From an uncultured bacterium (GTDB lineage Bacteria; Fidelibacterota; UBA2242; JAFGTP01), in NCBI GenBank assembly GCA_964498725.1, contig CAZCHS010000006.1, positions 1,968 through 65,967 on the forward strand: 64,000 nucleotides of DNA, read 5' to 3'. The position numbers were made by a program, and so were the translations under genes. The notes under the pieces were generated by a model that was given only the letters and a program-made list of their open reading frames with translations, was not told the origin of the DNA and did no database searches. Position 1 is the first letter of the stretch, and each line of letters starts with the position of its first letter. This document shows, piece after piece, positions 52,511 through 60,663 of the stretch.

Positions 52511-52566
52511 TGATAATATCGCATAAAATTTGATAAAAAATGATAAAATTCAATAAAAGAGAACAA

Positions 52567-54123
52567 ATGATGCTTACAAAAACTTTAAAATTACAAATCG
52601 TGCTATCAGTTTTAATCACCCTTTTCCTGGTATTACTGTCCTGTGATCAAGCTATCCTTAATTCCGAACCATTGGTTGAGTTGGTATTTGAGCCGGACAC
52701 TGTTTTGCCGGGGTCAACAAATATTTTAAAAGCCGTAGTCAGTGATCCGGACACAGATAAAGTAGAGATTACCTGGACCACCACCAGCGGAACCTTAAAC
52801 AGGAATACCGGAACAGAGGTCAAATGGACAGCACCGGATTTTTATACTGATGTTTTCATCACTGTTACAGCAGTAGATGAACATGATGCGGAAACTTCTG
52901 TAGAAAAAATTGTCTATGTTCGCAATATTAAACCTTTTATTCAAAATTTTTCTGCTGATGCTGATATTGTGTTAATTGGCAATCGGGTTAAGTTAAGCTG
53001 CGAGGCCAGGGATGAGGAAGAGTCAAAACTCACCTACAATTTTATTTCACAAAATGGCAAAGGCACCTTTTCTGAATTGGATGGAAAAGAAAACACAAAA
53101 ACCTGGAATGCTCCCTCTAATCAGGAGGACGCCGGCGATTATAATCTGATCGTAAAAGTCAGTGATTCCAATGGTGAAAGCGATTCTGATACCCTGAGTG
53201 TTTTGGTTTATTCTGATTATTCATCAGTTTGGGTGGTGGATAGTGAAAAACAAACATTAGAAAAATTTGGAAAAAATGGCGATAAAATATTGACAGCTGA
53301 GCAGGAATTGATCAAACCGATTTCTATCACAAACAATACAAATGAGTTTTACGGATGCTGGGTTGCGGATTATGAAGCGGCTAATATCTACAAAATCAGC
53401 GCAAAGGGTAAAACATTATCCACAATCGAAAATATCGGCAGAATCAGGGATATAAAAATTCATAAAGAATCCAATAAAATGGCGGCTTTAAATGTTGACA
53501 GCAACTATGTAGCAATCATCAATACCTATAACAATCGTATTGTAAAAAAAATAAAGGGTTTTACCGAGCCTAAATCCCTAACAGTTAATCAAATCAACGG
53601 AGATGTTTGGATATGCGAGCCCAATATCGACCAGGTTGTTAAATTTAATATCAATAATCCCCCTGACTCCGTGATGGCAAGTGATAAATGTACCATTATT
53701 ACAGAAAATCTTAATAACCCGGTAAATGTCCAAATCGGTTACAAAACGCCTACTATTATATATATAGCGGATAAAAATGATCACGAAATCGAACGAATCG
53801 ATTTTGCAACAGGAACCAGATTAAGTGCTGTAACCGGTTTTTTTCTGCCGGAACAAATCGAAGTTAGTTCACAGCAAAATGTCTGGATAATTGACCAGAA
53901 CGGCCTTTATTTTTTTCCCGAAGACAATATAAATGATGTGCAGCCTTCCAATATGCTGGCCCCGACAGAATTTTTCGATCCTCATGTTATTGACATCGAT
54001 GATAATGGCAATGTTTGGGTTGGTGACAACGGAAGCAAAAAATTGATCCGGATCAATCCGGTGGGCCAGGAAATATCCATATCCGGTTTTCAGTTTATCA
54101 ACGATATCATTGTTAATAAGTGA
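52567..54123 (+). CDS. Lipoprotein with two Ig/PKD-like domains and NHL-like beta-propeller
   Basis: LLSC lipobox, repeated WTAP/WNAP Ig motifs, VWVVD/CWVAD/VWICE/VWVGD blade repeats. Confidence 0.75.
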   Translation: MMLTKTLKLQIVLSVLITLFLVLLSCDQAILNSEPLVELVFEPDTVLPGSTNILKAVVSDPDTDKVEITWTTTSGTLNRNTGTEVKWTAPDFYTDVFITVTAVDEHDAETSVEKIVYVRNIKPFIQNFSADADIVLIGNRVKLSCEARDEEESKLTYNFISQNGKGTFSELDGKENTKTWNAPSNQEDAGDYNLIVKVSDSNGESDSDTLSVLVYSDYSSVWVVDSEKQTLEKFGKNGDKILTAEQELIKPISITNNTNEFYGCWVADYEAANIYKISAKGKTLSTIENIGRIRDIKIHKESNKMAALNVDSNYVAIINTYNNRIVKKIKGFTEPKSLTVNQINGDVWICEPNIDQVVKFNINNPPDSVMASDKCTIITENLNNPVNVQIGYKTPTIIYIADKNDHEIERIDFATGTRLSAVTGFFLPEQIEVSSQQNVWIIDQNGLYFFPEDNINDVQPSNMLAPTEFFDPHVIDIDDNGNVWVGDNGSKKLIRINPVGQEISISGFQFINDIIVNK

Positions 54124-54277
54124 AAAAAATTCACATAATGGAATAATTTTCCAATAGAAACGATTAAAAACAATAAAAAACGATAAAATTAAATAAAATA
54201 TGATAAAATTTAAAACTATATTAAACACCTTTAAAACAAGTAACTTAACCAAAATTTGATAAAGTTTGATAAAAGAC

Positions 54278-54293
54278 TGGCATTATGATTGTC
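54278..54293 (+). promoter_or_regulatory. Sigma-54-like promoter of fliK operon
   Basis: TGGCATTATGATTGTC (GG-N10-GT) after an AT-rich upstream region. Confidence 0.55.
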
Positions 54294-54325
54294 ATTTAAT
54301 AGAAAAAAGTAAAAAGAGAATATTT

Positions 54326-57300
54326 ATGATAACTTTAATAAAAAATACAGAAAACAGTAAACAGCAACTCTTCCCCTTTCATGTTGATAAAAACAACAGT
54401 AATGAAGAATCAGCACTTTTTGCAAATCTGCTCGGTATGGCAAAAAAAACCGTTGACAATGAAAGTAATGCATCAAATGAAAACCGGGAAGCCGCGGAAA
54501 AAGGCAATCTTTTCAAGTCCGTCGAATCACAAAAACAAGAGAACAAAGATACTGATAATATTGCCAGTGATGATAACGGAACCAGTGTCAATTTAAATGA
54601 AAACTTACCAGCACCGGGAGAGCAAATTGGTTTAAATTTAGTTATGCCGGAAAACACAGGCGCGGAAAAGCATGGTGCCGATAGTAATGAAATGATTACC
54701 GGTATCATTTTACAAGACGGTAAGATCATTAAAAATATAGTCTTTACAGCATCCTCTGCCGCTTCCGGTGATTTGCCTTCAGCTAATACGAATTCAGTGG
54801 ACAATAGCAATTTAACCGTTGCTGTGAAAGAAGTGAATGCTGATAAATTGAATTCCGAAAATATTATCTTTGCTAATGGAAAGGGTATCAGCGTATCAGA
54901 ACTGGAAAAACTCGGCTTTCAAAAATTAACAGATCAGTCATCTTTAGTGGATACGGAACTCAAAAAAATTGAAGCACAAATTCAGACCCTGATCAATAAA
55001 AGTCTTGCAAAAGATGACAATATTAATCTCAATGAGCAAATCAGTTCCGCTAATACCGCAAAAAATCAGAATACATCGGAAAATATAGATCAGGAGATAA
55101 AGCAGAATAGTAATCAGGAAACTCAAACAGATGGAAAAAATATTTACCATCAACAAGCAACAATAAAACCGGGAAATGCACAATTCTCCGAAAGCGTTAT
55201 TGCGAAAGATAATCTCGAATCAGGGATTAACTATAAAAATTCTCAATCCGGTGAAACCGGTACAGAAATTCTCAACAAATCAGCATTAGGTCAAAAAAGT
55301 GGAGACATCCAAACAAATAATCAATCCACAAAGAATGATATGCAAAATGCAGATGACAAATCATTCCAAAACCAGCAAAACAATCCGGTATCCGATAAAG
55401 CGGCAAACCTGGAAAATGAAACAATTGCCCAGGTGAATAAATCCAATCAAAATTCCAGTGCTGAAAATAGCAGTGTTAACCACACTACCGCCAAACCCAA
55501 TGATGCAGAACTGACAATGGCTTTTTCTAAAGAAGAAACGAATCTAAAAGAGAAATTGGGAGAAAATATTGCAACCGGTAGAAACAATGGTAATGAAAAT
55601 AATAAGGAAGCAGGCTTCAATGATACACAGTTGAAGAATAGCGAAAGTGTGTTTGGAAATAAAAATATAAAAGGTTCTGAAGTAAACACTCATTCAGATC
55701 AAGCACAAAATACTTCTTCAACAACTATTGGTAAAGAAGAAAACAAAGTAAATTCATCCGGAGTTAACAGCCGCAACCAGGTATCAAATGAAACTATTAG
55801 AGCAGAGCAAAACACAGGAAAATCATCCGCCAATATTAACGAAAACAACTCAAGCAAAACCAATCAATTTGCCAATGACCAGATCAATATCAAGCAAATA
55901 AATGACAATAAAGCCCGGAATGAATCACCGGATATATCAGAAAATTCACAGCAGGCTGCAAAAAACGAATCAAAAGGCCAAATAAAAGAAACCTTTTTTA
56001 AAAGCAGTTCTCTTAAAGCCAATCAAAACACTAACGAGCATGTTAAGACCCAGGATAATTCAGGCACTTTTGTGACCAAATCCGCAGAAGCAAATACAAC
56101 AAAAACTATCGCAACTGAGAACCCATCTGTGCAGGATAAAGATATCAGCAAAGACCCTAATTTGAACATCTCAAATCCGGAACCGGCAAAAGCTGCCATT
56201 AAAAACAATCAACAGCAAACAACAACCGCGAAGGTGGATAGTGAATCCTTTCAAGTTTCCAACAAAAATAATCAGTCGGCAAATACTGATAATTCCAATG
56301 CATTAAAAAACTCTTTTAATAGGGATATTGCAGAAAATAAATTCCAATTTACTAACAACAAGCCGACAATTGAATCCGGGAATATGAATATTGATAAAAC
56401 TGAAAAGACAGCAAATACAAATCCGGAGAACACATTCATAGGCCTTAACAACACCAATAAAAATAGTAATAAAAATCATAAAACTGACGGATTGGACAAT
56501 AGGGAATTGAAACCCACTATTCAAACCAATTCGATGAAATCCGAAAAGGATGATAATTTTTCTGCAACCACAGAAATTAAAAGTAAAAAAGTAAATACCG
56601 ATAATTTTAATGGGGAATCACGAACCATCAACCAAAACCAGGCAACAACAAAATCAGGCCCTGCAATGGCCTCAAACACAGAACAGGAAAGTAAAAAAGT
56701 AACTGCTGACCTCTTTAATGCGGAATCACGAACTGTCAATCAGAATCAAACAAATCTGAAGAATGAGGTAAAACAGTCATCCGAGCAAATTATTACAACA
56801 GAATCAAATACAAAACAGGACAGCAACCCGGATTTCTCACAATCCTCCCGTGACAGTTATGGAAATAATGATGCAAACGAAACTGTCCATAACAAATTCA
56901 CACCGGAGAAAAAATCCGACCGGAATGATAGCTTTGCTGATAAAGTATCTCAAAAGGATGAAGAAAAACAGAACAAAATCAACCCCTTAGCCGAGGCCAA
57001 CCCAACCCAAAAAATTCAAACACCCACACCTGAAACACGCCCGCTGGGCTATACCGATATCAGAGGTGTCATTCAAAAAATCGAAAGAATGGTGACAGAA
57101 GCCTCCCAAAATAAACTGAACAATACAAGTTTTTCATTAGACAGCAAAGACTTCGGCAAAATGGAAATTCGTATCCGCCAAAACAGTAAAGAAGATCAGG
57201 GTGTGATATTGGTGGAAAATCAAACAATCAAAGAACAAATCCAGAAATTTATTCCGGATATCCAGGAAAATTTAAATCAAAAGGGCGCTATGATTTCAGC

Positions 57301-57481
57301 CATTAATGTTGAAGTCAACAGCCAGAATGAAAACACTGATCCGCAAAGCCGGTTCAGTGGCAAAAAAAATAACCGTAAAGTGGATTCAACCAACAACAAT
57401 TATGCTTCCGCTTCGGAAATTGATACAAGAACAACTAAAACGCGAAGCTATGGTTACAATACCATGGAAGTCTTAGCGTAA
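54326..57481 (+). CDS. fliK: Flagellar hook-length control protein, very long (~1050 aa)
   Basis: Long N/S/Q/T-rich low-complexity region, C-terminal LDSKDFGKMEIRI T3S4-like domain, YNTMEVLA end; directly upstream of flgD. Confidence 0.85.
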   Translation: MITLIKNTENSKQQLFPFHVDKNNSNEESALFANLLGMAKKTVDNESNASNENREAAEKGNLFKSVESQKQENKDTDNIASDDNGTSVNLNENLPAPGEQIGLNLVMPENTGAEKHGADSNEMITGIILQDGKIIKNIVFTASSAASGDLPSANTNSVDNSNLTVAVKEVNADKLNSENIIFANGKGISVSELEKLGFQKLTDQSSLVDTELKKIEAQIQTLINKSLAKDDNINLNEQISSANTAKNQNTSENIDQEIKQNSNQETQTDGKNIYHQQATIKPGNAQFSESVIAKDNLESGINYKNSQSGETGTEILNKSALGQKSGDIQTNNQSTKNDMQNADDKSFQNQQNNPVSDKAANLENETIAQVNKSNQNSSAENSSVNHTTAKPNDAELTMAFSKEETNLKEKLGENIATGRNNGNENNKEAGFNDTQLKNSESVFGNKNIKGSEVNTHSDQAQNTSSTTIGKEENKVNSSGVNSRNQVSNETIRAEQNTGKSSANINENNSSKTNQFANDQINIKQINDNKARNESPDISENSQQAAKNESKGQIKETFFKSSSLKANQNTNEHVKTQDNSGTFVTKSAEANTTKTIATENPSVQDKDISKDPNLNISNPEPAKAAIKNNQQQTTTAKVDSESFQVSNKNNQSANTDNSNALKNSFNRDIAENKFQFTNNKPTIESGNMNIDKTEKTANTNPENTFIGLNNTNKNSNKNHKTDGLDNRELKPTIQTNSMKSEKDDNFSATTEIKSKKVNTDNFNGESRTINQNQATTKSGPAMASNTEQESKKVTADLFNAESRTVNQNQTNLKNEVKQSSEQIITTESNTKQDSNPDFSQSSRDSYGNNDANETVHNKFTPEKKSDRNDSFADKVSQKDEEKQNKINPLAEANPTQKIQTPTPETRPLGYTDIRGVIQKIERMVTEASQNKLNNTSFSLDSKDFGKMEIRIRQNSKEDQGVILVENQTIKEQIQKFIPDIQENLNQKGAMISAINVEVNSQNENTDPQSRFSGKKNNRKVDSTNNNYASASEIDTRTTKTRSYGYNTMEVLA
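56581..56750 (+). repeat. Imperfect tandem duplication (108-bp period) within fliK
   Basis: SKKVNTDNFNGESRTINQNQ (56581) vs SKKVTADLFNAESRTVNQNQ (56689). Confidence 0.8.
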
Positions 57482-57492
57482 AGGAGTAAAGT

Positions 57493-58191
57493 ATGCTAGA
57501 CACAGGCTCCATAACAGGCGATTCATTTGTTGGACAGGGAGAATTTGATGTTGAAAAATCAAGTAATGAAATGGGACGGGACGAATTCCTAAAATTACTG
57601 ACAGTTCAACTTCAAAACCAGGATCCTATGAGTCCAATGGAAAGTCAGGACTTCTCTGCTCAGATTGCACAGTTCAGTCAGGTGGAACAATTGGAAAATA
57701 TGTCCAATGGTATGACCAAGAGCAATGAGATCGACCTGATGCTTACACAGGCAATTACTAACACGATGTCCACAACACTTGTTGGGAAACGGGCGAAAGT
57801 TGCCGGTGACCAGGTAATGATTACAAAAGACGGAACTGCCGATGTATCCTTCAAACTTGACCGCAGCGCCAGTGCTATCAAAATCAACATTCGTGATGCC
57901 AAAGGAAATACCATCAGAACCATCGAAAAAACCGGAATGGTGGAAGGTAACCACACGGTGAACTGGGACGGCCTCGATAAAAATGGTGAGAAAATTTCTC
58001 GTGATAAGGAATATACCTTTGAAGTCGAAGCTATGGATTCCGATGGCAATTCTGTTCCAGTCACTCCCTATATGGTTGGTGTAATACAAGGCGTTGAGTA
58101 TGCGGATAACTCAACACTTTTGATCATGAACACAGGGCAGAAAGCACCCTTTTCAACCGTGCTGGAAGTCATTGCACCTGAGGATTTTTAA
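57493..58191 (+). CDS. flgD: Flagellar hook capping protein
   Basis: FLKLLTVQLQNQDPMSP, AQFSQVEQL, WDGLD. Confidence 0.96.
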   Translation: MLDTGSITGDSFVGQGEFDVEKSSNEMGRDEFLKLLTVQLQNQDPMSPMESQDFSAQIAQFSQVEQLENMSNGMTKSNEIDLMLTQAITNTMSTTLVGKRAKVAGDQVMITKDGTADVSFKLDRSASAIKINIRDAKGNTIRTIEKTGMVEGNHTVNWDGLDKNGEKISRDKEYTFEVEAMDSDGNSVPVTPYMVGVIQGVEYADNSTLLIMNTGQKAPFSTVLEVIAPEDF

Positions 58192-58210
58192 TTAAACCGG
58201 TGAGATTACT

Positions 58211-58615
58211 ATGAAGATAAGTGATTTACAATTCAACAGAAATTTACAGAATATTGATGCTACCAGAAAGCATCAGAATATTCCGCAATCGAATTCATTC
58301 AAACCTGCTGAGAAAAATGAACACCGGAAAAATTTTGCAGAAGTTCTGGGCAATCAGTTACAACCCCAAAAAGAGATTGTATTTTCTGCCCATGCCAAGC
58401 GAAGAATTACTGACAGAAATATCACTGTCGATCTTGAACGGTTGGAATCCGGTATCGAGCAGGTCAATAAAAAGGGATCAAACAATTCATTGGTAATGAT
58501 TGACAAGGATGCCTTTATCGTGAATGTAAAAAACAAAACCGTTATTACTGCTGTCGACCAGCAGTCAATGCAGAACAATGTTTTCACAAACATTGATAGT
58601 GTTGCAATAGTATAA
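58211..58615 (+). CDS. TIGR02530-type flagellar operon protein
   Basis: FSAHAKRR, KGSNNSLV, VKNKTVITA, VFTNIDSV; between flgD and flgE. Confidence 0.88.
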   Translation: MKISDLQFNRNLQNIDATRKHQNIPQSNSFKPAEKNEHRKNFAEVLGNQLQPQKEIVFSAHAKRRITDRNITVDLERLESGIEQVNKKGSNNSLVMIDKDAFIVNVKNKTVITAVDQQSMQNNVFTNIDSVAIV

Positions 58616-58628
58616 AAATGAACAATAC

Positions 58629-58681
58629 AGGGCTGGCCCTCGCAGAGGAGGCCCTTCATCCGCCGAATGATTGACGCGGAT
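58629..58681 (+). ncRNA. Two-hairpin structured leader upstream of flgE
   Basis: GC-rich island in AT-rich DNA: AGGGCT/GGCCCT enclosing CCTC-GCA-GAGG, then ATCCGC-CGAATGATTGAC-GCGGAT, just before the AAGGAGG RBS. Confidence 0.55.
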
Positions 58682-58701
58682 ATTAAAACAAGGAGGTCAC
58701 A

Positions 58702-60609
58702 ATGGCTTTATCATTTCAAATTCCGGTTTCTGCTTTATCACAACATCAAAACAGAATCGAATTACTCAGTAAAAACATTTCCAACTTAAACACCTTTGGT
58801 TACAAAGGCAGCCGGTTAACTTTCATGGAAACATTGGGAAGTGTTTCCGGCGTCAGCCAGTTTCAATTCAAACAAGGTAATATTACCGCCACCGGCCGTA
58901 CCACAGATATGGCAATTGACGGCGACAGTTTCTTTGTATTAAAAAATTCAAACAGTGAAAACACTTATTCCCGACTTGGTGCTTTCAATATTAATGAACA
59001 GGGACGTTTAGTAAATACTGATGGCGATGTTGTACAGGGATGGCTTCGCGATATCTCACTGAATAATCCAACATTATCAAAAACCATGAGCGATATTGTT
59101 GTTGATCCCAATCTGAAAAAACCCGGCCAGGCAACGGAAAATGTGTTCCTTTCAGGCAACCTTAATTCGGGTATTGAATCTGTCAAAGAGGTGTGGGAAT
59201 CAGCCACAGGCTTCGCGGCCAATGATAATATTATTGAAAGTAGCGGCGTTACACTTCCTTTAACAGTTACCAGTGGTGTAAATGATCAATTCAATGTCAG
59301 TTTTAATGGTGGTGTTGACGAAACCGTAACCCTGTCAGCCGGTAATTACAACTCGCTGGATAGTTTAGCGGCGGAGATCAATGCAAAAATAAGTACCAAT
59401 GCCAATCTTTACGGCAAAATTCAGGCTTTCAATGCAGGTGGTGTCCTGCAGATTAGAAACACTGCCGGCACAAATGGCGATGTTATGACACTTTCTGCCG
59501 GTACCAATGATTTGCTTTCCAGCATCAATGTCACACCGGATTCTTCAACCTATCAGGAACCTACAACCAATACTGAACTCAATTCCCTGCTACAGGTAAC
59601 CAAAGCATTACAAGATGACGATACAATTGAAATTACCGGAAAAGATTCCTCCGGTGAAAGTATATCAGCGACCTTTACCTATGGTACCGACGGAACAACT
59701 GTAGAGGATTTATTGAGCACTATAAATACTGCTTTTTCCGGTAGCGCAGAAGCGACCTTTGAAGATGGGAAAATTATTCTCACTGATCTTGAATCAGGAG
59801 AAAGTAATTCCACAATCAGTATGGTGACTTCCAACTCCAGTGCCGGGCAGATCACAATCCCGAGCTTTACCAATAGCGCCGAAGGGTATACGGCAAGAGT
59901 TACCACTTCTGTCATTGCTTATGATAGTTTAGGCAACAGCCATAATGTTACCCTCGATTTTATTAAACCAGATAACAGCAGTGAAAATTATGGTAAATGG
60001 GACTGGGAAGCTTCAGTAGGCGGAAATGAAAATATCATTAACGGTGGCTCCGGTTCAGTCGAATTTGACGCCGATGGTAATCTAATCGCTTTCCGGTATG
60101 ACGGCGGCGTGGACTCACTTTCCATTGATCCGCAAAACGGCAGTGAGTCCATCAAGATGAAACTACAGGTTGGCGCCCAGGGTGAATACTCAGGCTTAAC
60201 TCAATTTAATACTGTCAGCAGTGTAGAAGTCAGAGACCAGGATGGAAATGCAGCGGGTAAAATAAATGGTATAAAAGTTGAAACTGATGGAAGCATTGTT
60301 GCTTCTTTTACAAATGGAACCGAAGATATGATCGCTCAGTTAGCCATGGCTAAATTCTCTAATCCTAACGGGTTAACTAACATGGGATCAGGAAATTTCA
60401 AAGAAAGTGCTGATAGTGGCGTGGCCAATATTGGAAAAGCCGACAGCCAAAATTCTGAAATTATTTCCGAATCTCTGGAAAGTTCTACCATGGACCTGGC
60501 TGACCAGTTTTCAAAATTGATTGAAGCACAGAATGCCTACCAGGCTTCTGCCAGGGTTGTCAATACAATTCAGGAAATTGCTGACCAGGCAGTAAGTTTG
60601 AAAAGGTAA
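58702..60609 (+). CDS. flgE: Flagellar hook protein (635 aa, inserted domain)
   Basis: NISNLNTFGYK, TGRTTDMAIDGDSFF, YDSLGNSH, LESSTMDLADQFSKLIEAQNAYQASAR. Confidence 0.93.
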   Translation: MALSFQIPVSALSQHQNRIELLSKNISNLNTFGYKGSRLTFMETLGSVSGVSQFQFKQGNITATGRTTDMAIDGDSFFVLKNSNSENTYSRLGAFNINEQGRLVNTDGDVVQGWLRDISLNNPTLSKTMSDIVVDPNLKKPGQATENVFLSGNLNSGIESVKEVWESATGFAANDNIIESSGVTLPLTVTSGVNDQFNVSFNGGVDETVTLSAGNYNSLDSLAAEINAKISTNANLYGKIQAFNAGGVLQIRNTAGTNGDVMTLSAGTNDLLSSINVTPDSSTYQEPTTNTELNSLLQVTKALQDDDTIEITGKDSSGESISATFTYGTDGTTVEDLLSTINTAFSGSAEATFEDGKIILTDLESGESNSTISMVTSNSSAGQITIPSFTNSAEGYTARVTTSVIAYDSLGNSHNVTLDFIKPDNSSENYGKWDWEASVGGNENIINGGSGSVEFDADGNLIAFRYDGGVDSLSIDPQNGSESIKMKLQVGAQGEYSGLTQFNTVSSVEVRDQDGNAAGKINGIKVETDGSIVASFTNGTEDMIAQLAMAKFSNPNGLTNMGSGNFKESADSGVANIGKADSQNSEIISESLESSTMDLADQFSKLIEAQNAYQASARVVNTIQEIADQAVSLKR

Positions 60610-60634: not shown

Positions 60635-60663
60635 ATCCGCCCGGGCATGATTCCCGGGCGGAT
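60635..60663 (+). other. Strong intercistronic stem-loop (no U tract) between flgE and motA
   Basis: ATCCGCCCGGG-CATGATT-CCCGGGCGGAT, 11-bp perfect stem. Confidence 0.7.

Follow-up and report, generated by a model that had tools for sequence, protein, structure and literature searches.

Segmental processing of operon mRNA, with hairpins that stabilise the 5' end, is known from cggR-gapA of Bacillus subtilis, which involves RNase Y, and from papBA of Escherichia coli. Within flagellar systems, the Termite-flg and flg-Rhizobiales motifs of Weinberg et al. 2010 reportedly lie upstream of flagellar genes, as their names imply. In a comparative genomics report both motifs (RF01729 and RF01736) are presented as candidate cis-regulatory RNAs, Termite-flg occurring only in the termite hindgut and flg-Rhizobiales only in Rhizobiales (PMC2864571). 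According to two further reports, a small flagellar-encoded protein of the CsrA-FliW system acts on leader hairpins of a high-copy structural gene, the flagellin gene (hag of B. subtilis, flaA of Campylobacter jejuni; PMC6529632, PMC4894983). Here we describe a structured leader of another flagellar gene, the hook protein gene flgE, in 64,000 nucleotides (nt) of an uncultured member of the Fidelibacterota (GenBank assembly GCA_964498725.1, contig CAZCHS010000006.1, positions 1,968 to 65,967). This whole stretch is called the window below. The leader occupies the spacer between flgE and an upstream gene of the TIGR02530 family, and folds into two hairpins, P1 and P2 (Table 1).

The flgE leader resembles the CsrA-FliW leaders in the type of gene that it precedes and in the small flagellar protein encoded beside it, but a GGA in a loop is not conserved, the targets are hook and rod rather than flagellin, and the associated gene is TIGR02530 rather than csrA or fliW. 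With cggR-gapA and papBA it shares a place between a low-copy 5' gene and a high-copy 3' gene and a possible cut in a single-stranded A/U-rich stretch before the hairpins; those hairpins, however, are not cross-phylum sequence families, whereas here bulge and loop bases are invariant and the element tracks one small protein. Small RNAs (sRNAs) of C. jejuni act on flgE mRNA, and flgE is thus post-transcriptionally controlled in another lineage; they are trans-acting, base-pairing RNAs of Epsilonproteobacteria that have no structure or protein in common with the leader (PMC11187230). The Termite-flg and flg-Rhizobiales models find nothing in the window at E <= 10, nor in 11 other motif-bearing loci (Clostridial and others) at E <= 1, and in contrast to their narrow ranges the present motif occurs in many phyla. 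A comparison with Rfam had been proposed in an earlier note on the window, made by a model from the DNA letters and the translated reading frames. None of the 4227 models of Rfam 15 matches the leader even at E <= 10 (searched in 57400-59400, where matches are limited to unrelated low scores away from it), and at E <= 1 the motif is unmatched in the same 11 loci, in whose neighbouring regions only a T-box and a SAM riboswitch are found.

A literature search, with most subscription journals outside its scope, returned neither an account of this RNA nor a function for the TIGR02530 protein; searched by name, "TIGR02530" was found in one megaphage paper only. In a preprint of June 2026 that surveys the gene content of flagellar systems, the protein is entered as "Flagellar_put ... 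Function unknown" (PMC13277936), and an annotation paper on Roseburia and Eubacterium calls it merely a "flagellar operon protein" (PMC3720852). New here are copies of the motif between flgF and flgG in Clostridia, the genome-wide tracking of the motif with TIGR02530, a confident model of the protein and a hinted 5' end of the RNA.

A covarying two-hairpin RNA in front of flgE

The leader is a genuine, strongly covarying and widespread RNA motif that is missing from Rfam. In a sample of 41 genomes of the same order, including that of the window (G000), 21 encode a TIGR02530 homologue, and in every one of these the spacer between the TIGR02530 gene and flgE measures 79-94 nt and keeps both P1 and P2. 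When a MAFFT alignment of the 21 spacers (A1) was scored for a structure of 15 pairs, 94.9% of the cells paired and 10 of the 15 pairs showed changes on both sides; none of 500 shuffles matched this, and partners slid along the alignment paired in 40-56%. A protein-alignment scan of species genomes then gave a cross-phylum set of 521 confirmed relatives, of which the best 80 loci were used. These come from Marinimicrobia, Calditrichota, Bacillota (including Clostridium prolinivorans and Natroniella), Chloroflexota, Armatimonadota, Ignavibacteria/Bacteroidota, KSB1, Lentisphaeria, Oligoflexia/Bdellovibrionales, Poribacteria and Kryptoniota, and in all 80 flgE lies downstream of the TIGR02530 gene. 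The order-level covariance model (R1) matched 59 of the 80 at E <= 2e-5, each time directly 3' of the TIGR02530 gene, which bears out the earlier note, where spacers of this kind were supposed to occur after the gene in other phyla as well. In the alignment of these 59 sequences (A4), which was fitted to the covariance model and is therefore biased toward structure, 95.7% of the cells pair, against 41-57% in the slid controls, and double-sided changes are seen in 14 of the 15 pairs (195 cells), among them all 6 pairs of the P2 stem. Covariation across genomes, which the earlier note had set as a test of its proposal, is accordingly present in both alignments. Five of the 80 loci (L066, L070, L072, L079 and L089) gave nothing with R1 at E <= 1; with a broader model and the filters off, L070 reached 16.6 bits, its P1 being interrupted by a long insert, L072 reached 10 bits, and L066, L079 and L089 were without any match.

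The unpaired positions are conserved in a different manner from the stems. The GG of the P1 bulge is identical in 59 of 59 sequences and the CC/GG pairs that flank it are essentially invariant, the next base 3' of the GG being A in 32 of the 59. The P2 loop follows the pattern N-GA-NN-GA-NN-GA-N, each G or A of which is retained in 56-58 of the 59, and tandem sheared G-A pairs may close a hexaloop within it. A K-turn or K-loop was considered for this loop and rejected, as the GA steps have no adjoining 3-nt bulge. Because the bulge GG and the loop GA steps are kept while the stems are rewritten, a specific reader of the RNA is suggested. The stretch before P1 is A-rich and unconserved. Inserted hairpins occur at the tip of P1 in Calditrichota and Bacteroidota loci, and several Chloroflexota loci have kept P1 and lost P2; across the loci compared, P1 is the universal core of the motif and P2 an accessory to it. 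The extra hairpin at the P1 tip is 20-40 nt long in L045, L052, L057, L068, L074, L100, L106 and L108 (labelled Calditrichota, Kryptoniota or Bacteroidota), and leaves the GG bulge and P2 unaltered. P1-like matches of 9-11 bits about 2 kb upstream in four Chloroflexota loci (L071:1334-1354, L072:1189-1209, L085:1192-1212 and L086:1242-1262) were discounted as probable coding coincidence, since they lie at homologous positions within an open reading frame (ORF) of about 500 amino acids (aa).

For the window itself, the earlier note had described a GC-rich 86-nt spacer with two adjacent hairpins that is not a terminator, and had proposed that P1 sequesters a GAGGAGG run resembling a Shine-Dalgarno (SD) sequence. 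Coordinates, anatomy and computed fold all agree with the description: RNAfold returns exactly P1 and P2, at -26 kcal/mol, the spacer is a local peak of G+C content (0.62 in 58620-58679, against about 0.30-0.45 nearby), and no U/T run follows P1 or P2 in the window, which speaks against an intrinsic terminator as the note had said. The GAGGAGG run is also present in P1 here, but it is not conserved, relatives showing GGGAAGC, GGGGAAG and similar sequences in its place. Motif and ribosome binding site (RBS) are separated by a gap of variable length, from about 8 nt in the order of the window, the SD following P2 at about 8-12 nt there, to about 190 nt in certain Clostridia. Because the SD-like run is not conserved and the RBS distance varies, a simple switch by SD sequestration is unlikely. 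The fold energy of the single sequence is within chance (z -1.58; 14 of 200 shuffles equally stable) while relatives keep both hairpins, so that conservation, and not thermodynamics, is what exceeds chance. A repeat or mobile element was also rejected: no second copy of the spacer exists in the 3.56-Mb genome, where further matches are just 14-22 nt long at E about 1 or more.

The leader and the TIGR02530 gene across genomes

The motif is not confined to the junction of the TIGR02530 gene with flgE, and it heads genes of high-copy axial proteins. This was seen in a sample of 151 genomes of the phylum around C. prolinivorans (the Clostridia sample; motif cut-off E <= 1e-5), in which TIGR02530 occurs in 105 genomes, the motif in 103 and both together in 102; the three genomes with TIGR02530 only hold diverged copies 3' of the gene, at 28.5, 17.8 and 11.3 bits with the filters off. 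Two to four strong copies are present in 43 of the 103 motif-positive genomes, and 20 copies that do not adjoin TIGR02530 were fetched. The gene 3' of these unlinked copies encodes FlgG in 17 (TIGR02488 above cut-off), a flagellin in one (L118) and a WecB/TagA glycosyltransferase in one (L116), L119 being unassigned, and the gene 5' is FlgF-like in 16 of the 20. One genome, G262, has four copies, three of which precede flgE, flgG and a flagellin gene while the fourth follows an flgF-like gene (L116, at G262:C56, L117 and L118 being its unlinked loci). In the L116 copy, which stands before the glycosyltransferase gene, P2 is followed by a T run and looks like a terminator.

Genomes that have flagella and lack TIGR02530 provide the counterpart. 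There are 15 such genomes in the Clostridia sample (FlgE/F/G at E <= 1e-40), and the motif is found in none of them. A search with the filters off of 13 regions 5' of flgE or flgG, taken from 12 of the 15 (G169, G216 and G307 left out), gave nothing above 10 bits; flgF-flgG spacers of the gene-less genomes measure 7, 16, 52, 95 and 179 nt and lack the motif, and in 5 of 7 loci the flgE match is preceded by an flgD match. A tree of FlgF was determined with 21 rows, 16 of them from genomes with a copy on the flgF side (including G187, and L116, which has no flgG after the motif) and 5 from gene-less genomes; it omits L115, L117, L118, L119 and L145, whose fetched pieces hold no FlgF ORF. The gene-less rows are scattered over this tree, which takes a minimum of 4 changes, at least 2 of them forced by well-supported branches. 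Because of this scatter, the gene has been lost more than once in genomes that also have no unlinked flgG copy. Such repeated joint absence, drawn from one phylum sample, is the best argument that gene and RNA work together.

Gene and motif also occur together at flgE in the phylum of the window. Of 151 genomes sampled there, 38 have FlgE/F/G-family genes and 36 have TIGR02530; a model match of at least 40 bits lies beside the gene in 35 of the 36, and the remaining genome (G057) gives 42.5 bits with the filters off, which makes 36 of 36. The 100% complete, flagellated genome G065, which is without TIGR02530, has a 28-nt gap before flgE and no motif, the ORF 5' of the gap (224 aa) being presumed flgD. 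Weak model matches (18-24 bits) in non-flagellated genomes are considered false; the best of them, in G064, falls within a long ORF and is not matched by Rfam. In Bdellovibrionota, 87 of 121 sampled genomes encode TIGR02530, and a search with strict filters finds the motif in 25 genomes, all 25 with the gene, including one (G337) in which the match is on another contig than the gene. When 20 strictly missed loci were searched with the filters off, 12 gave at least 21 bits and most others weaker matches; on inspection by eye, 19 of these 20 show P1 and its GG bulge 3' of the gene, and 10 show the GA loop of P2. The earlier note had made its proposal depend on the element not occurring independently of TIGR02530. 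At the level of the locus it does so occur, in the Clostridial flgF-flgG copies, and at the level of the genome it does not; genomes with the unlinked copies encode TIGR02530 elsewhere, gene-less flagellated genomes are without the motif at either place, and such a pattern fits a trans-acting partner better than it refutes one.

TIGR02530 as the candidate reader

The leader probably helps to set the output of hook protein. We favour, at a probability of about one half, the reading that it is a cis-acting element of flgE and flgG messages that is read by a trans factor, most likely TIGR02530, with processing or definition of the 5' end just upstream of P1. The motif would then define a family of structured mRNA leaders, with a P1 core that carries the GG bulge and mostly with P2 as well, placed between an upstream stop codon and the RBS of flgE or, in Clostridia, also of flgG and now and then of a flagellin gene. 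A sequence-specific trans factor would recognise this element post-transcriptionally, the likeliest being the protein of the adjoining gene, with its small basic alpha/beta domain of putative RelE/ParE/DUF4258-like type. The polycistronic flagellar mRNA would be cut, or its 5' end set, just upstream of P1, and the hook (and distal rod) message would be headed by protein-bound hairpins, its level uncoupled from that of the low-copy upstream genes. TIGR02530 as the partner, and processing or stabilisation as the effect, are the parts of this reading that we infer. TIGR02530 is the leading candidate because of its universal adjacency, its co-occurrence with the motif at genome level, unlinked copies included, the repeated joint absence and a weak likeness of its predicted fold to nuclease toxins.

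The protein of the window scores 87.9 bits against the NCBIfam model TIGR02530 (cut-off 83.2) and, at its C-terminus, 45.2 bits against Pfam PF12611 (cut-off 21.1). At 50% identity and E <= 1e-3 the family comprises 2252 representatives, almost all of them 125-140 aa long, with a variable N-terminal part of ~40 residues and a conserved C-terminal domain of ~95 residues that contains the motifs F-S-x-H-A-x-x-R-x-x-x-R, K-G, N..T-V-x-T and F-T-N-I-D (VFTNIDS here). The conserved H, R, R and K residues are only suggestive of ribonuclease chemistry. An AlphaFold2 model built from an alignment of 150 sequences gives residues 38-134 a predicted local distance difference test (pLDDT) of 91.4 and a predicted template modelling score of 0.76 (an alignment of 21 sequences gave pLDDT 46), and shows helices against a small antiparallel sheet, plus a C-terminal strand. 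A RelE/DUF4258-like fold of this domain, which the earlier note had guessed from the sequence, is suggested by the model: two helices on a small antiparallel sheet are what it would share, as a prediction and with weak scores, with the RelE/ParE superfamily including BrnT/DUF4258 (PDB 9g12_B, 2khe, 8c24_B and 3u97, among others), a family that includes sequence- or context-specific mRNA endonucleases. Signals from the exhaustive aligner VIA (top rows with a root mean square deviation of 2.4-4.5 A over 58-84 aligned residues) and from DUF4258 (4 of 21 members, best E 0.03, below threshold) are weak and consistent with the guess, and stay under secure levels. A search of the ESM Atlas returned the family itself only. 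A bolder form of the proposal, which we consider unlikely, would make TIGR02530 a domesticated RelE/BrnT-type endoribonuclease that is guided by the hairpins, cuts at or next to the upstream stop codon, including that of its own gene, and then stays bound, leaving separate protected flgE (in Clostridia, flgG) messages.

The position of the motif bears on where such an end could lie. In 61 of the 80 cross-phylum loci, where simple patterns located both hairpins, the median distance from the TIGR02530 stop codon to the start of P1 is 12 nt (<=20 nt in 49, 21-40 nt in 4 and >40 nt in 8), and at flgG copies P1 often starts 0-10 nt past the flgF stop codon. Because P1 begins so near the upstream stop codon, it would be covered by a terminating ribosome. 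Eleven salt-lake metatranscriptome runs of three studies contain parts of the window as assembled contigs, and the contigs of four runs were aligned to it. Contigs 95-99% identical to the window, and hence from a related strain, start at 58613 (X1), 58612 (X3) and 58613 (X5), in two studies; in X1 and X3 the letters 5' of the start are sequencing adapter, so that these are true fragment ends. They give a weak hint of an RNA end at the TIGR02530 stop codon (TAA, 58613-58615), 16 nt before P1. The region 58185-58611 is spanned by no contig of the four runs, a gap that by itself shows nothing. A sigma-70-type promoter at 58583-58611, ending 2 nt before the hinted RNA end, was rejected, as 9 such sites were found against 8.8 expected, and so was a Bacteroidetes-type or extended -10 promoter recognised by eye in the last codons of the TIGR02530 gene, the bases of which fall at synonymous sites that vary freely in relatives. 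By eye, neither the sigma-54 nor the sigma-28 consensus fits. Since a conserved internal promoter lacks support, processing is the simpler reading of the hinted 5' end. In the same codons, the Ser codon of the conserved C-terminal D-S-V (58598-58600) is AGT in 21 of 21 relatives (L009-L029) while neighbouring synonymous sites are free; this constancy may reflect codon bias or shared ancestry.

Several observations weigh against TIGR02530 as the reader, or against processing as the effect. Foldseek, a check proposed in the earlier note, does put RelE, ParE and HigB2 toxins at the top of its list, but at a best E of 0.37; with VIA, nearly all of the top 17 rows are toxins of RelE/ParE/HigB/YafQ/YoeB type, at Z 4.3-5.7, below the stated background of 7-8; and a sequence profile search of the PDB with TIGR02530 gave 0 matches at E <= 10. 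RelE-type nucleases are known to cut ribosome-bound mRNA rather than hairpins. The gene differs from RelE/ParE toxin genes in being fixed in the flagellar operon across the 2252 family representatives and in having no antitoxin-like partner, its neighbours being flgD and flgE in every locus examined, and the variable N-terminal ~40 residues would equally suit an exported or assembly protein that has no role with RNA. In the genomes, gene and motif adjoin at flgE, and linkage by itself accounts for part of their co-occurrence at that site; the evidence from unlinked copies was obtained in a single phylum sample, with only the at least 2 independent changes firm; and one genome of that sample (G187) has the flgG copy with TIGR02530 missing even at E <= 10, its hook operon probably being outside the assembly, as no FlgD match is found either. 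P2 is absent in many Chloroflexota and about half of the examined Bdellovibrionota loci although the protein is conserved. As to the RNA, adapter-tagged ends occur at other contig ends too, a start at 60028 being common to two runs; the 5' chemistry is not readable from contigs of a related strain; and a single-stranded tail of 16 nt is long for a classical 5' stabiliser. Finally, the genome of the window encodes CsrA.

Much of the same evidence would also suit hairpins that serve housekeeping RNases of RNase Y, E or J type as a processing or stability element, TIGR02530 having an unrelated flagellar role. Cleavage of the A-rich single-stranded stretch behind the upstream stop codon would then leave flgE or flgG mRNA with protective 5' hairpins, which is consistent with the RNA contigs that begin 16 nt before P1 in two studies, with the A-rich and unconserved nature of the region before P1, with the place of the motif between low-copy genes and the high-copy axial genes flgE and flgG, and with the second strong hairpin just behind flgE; the variable distance to the RBS likewise suits a stability element better than an occlusion switch. 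A generic hairpin, however, would not preserve an invariant GG bulge and three GA steps from phylum to phylum as its stems change, nor would this explanation predict that the flgF-flgG motif is missing exactly in the TIGR02530-less genomes (0 of 15, with at least 2 independent changes), and on balance we regard it as doubtful.

CsrA or another RNA-binding protein could control translation of flgE and flgG from the motif, in the manner of CsrA-FliW on flagellin leaders or FlbT on Caulobacter flagellin mRNA; csrA is encoded on the contig that carries flgF and flgG, and a protein bound at P2 could affect initiation at the nearby SD in this order. The sequence itself is not that of a CsrA site, since a GGA is not conserved (A after GG in 32 of 59), the GG lies in a helix bulge and not in a hairpin loop, and the P2 loop has no GGA. 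CsrA is moreover found in the E. coli, B. subtilis and Thermotoga maritima controls, whereas TIGR02530 is present in 0 of 14 control genomes, and control by CsrA or a similar regulator seems to us improbable. (In G000, csrA is at C14:7458-7613, about 6 kb from flgF/flgG-type genes at C14:13774-15211, where a copy of the motif was not found.) Conserved unpaired nucleotides in a compact fold of two hairpins, with a possible defined 5' end nearby, would also be expected of an RNA that acts by itself, as a small ligand-sensing riboswitch or a self-cleaving ribozyme. The hinted end, however, falls in the unconserved A-rich flank outside the conserved core, P2 is dispensable in whole lineages, the RBS distance varies with no conserved alternative pairing to an RBS or terminator, and none of the riboswitch or ribozyme families of Rfam is matched even at E <= 10, so that we give an RNA-only function very little credence.

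Outside enteric models, little is understood of how a cell makes about a hundred hook subunits but only few copies of the proteins whose genes lie just upstream in the operon. The leader offers a concrete, conserved handle on this stoichiometry, as it marks hook and distal-rod genes in Marinimicrobia/Fidelibacterota, Calditrichota, Clostridia, Bdellovibrionota, Ignavibacteria/Bacteroidota, Chloroflexota and other phyla. If TIGR02530 is the partner, the family would gain a function, a new RNA family would be added to the catalogue, and a toxin-like fold would have been reused for gene-specific mRNA control. If it is an endoribonuclease as well, a nuclease fold of toxin type would have been turned into a device that sets stoichiometry, and possibly into a checkpoint, in hook and distal-rod synthesis of a large proportion of flagellated phyla.

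Gene order and features of the locus

The operon in the window has the order fliK-flgD-TIGR02530 gene-flgE-motA-motB-fliL-fliM, and the coordinates of its features around flgE are given in Table 1.

Table 1. Genes, RNA elements and candidate ends around flgE in the window (numbering of the window).
Feature	Position	Strand	Basis or remark
fliK	54266-57481	+	Pfam Flg_hook at C-terminus
flgD (hook cap)	57493..58191	+	Pfam FlgD, FlgD_ig, FLgD_tudor; NCBIfam FlgD models
TIGR02530-family flagellar gene, 134 aa	58211..58615	+	NCBIfam TIGR02530 and Pfam PF12611
Possible 5' end of flgE RNA, 16 nt upstream of P1	58612..58613	+	Metatranscriptome contig starts; weak hint only
flgE leader spacer, 86 nt, houses the RNA motif	58616..58701	+	RNAfold; comparison with relatives
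Hairpin P1	58629..58655	+	RNAfold; pair counts in alignments
P1 outer helix	58630-58634 with 58650-58654, plus A58629-U58655	+	Fold
P1 GG bulge	58635-58636	+	Invariant, 59/59
P1 inner helix CCUC/GAGG	58638-58641 with 58645-58648	+	GCA loop 58642-58644
Hairpin P2, 6-bp stem	58658-58663 with 58676-58681	+	Fold; pair changes
P2 12-nt loop CGAAUGAUUGAC	58664-58675	+	GA at 58665-66, 58669-70 and 58673-74 (period 4)
AAGGAGG Shine-Dalgarno of flgE, outside P1/P2 pairing	58690..58696	+	Sequence and fold
flgE (hook protein, 635 aa)	58702..60609, ATG at 58702	+	NCBIfam FlgE, TIGR03506; Pfam FlgE_D2, Flg_bb_rod, Flg_bbr_C
Hairpin between flgE and motA, 11 bp	60635..60663	+	G+C-rich, 9 G-C pairs, without U tract on + strand

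The FliK-like ORF is 1071 aa long and mostly N/Q/S/T/K-rich sequence of low complexity, the Flg_hook match being confined to its C-terminal ~80 residues. Just 5' of it, an ORF at 52540-54123 (527 aa) has an N-terminal membrane or signal segment and, by eye, a repeat-rich body, and is no recognised flagellar gene. At the other end of the locus, the hairpin at 60635-60663 and the leader hairpins together bracket flgE, and the former may mark the 3' border of a stable flgE segment.

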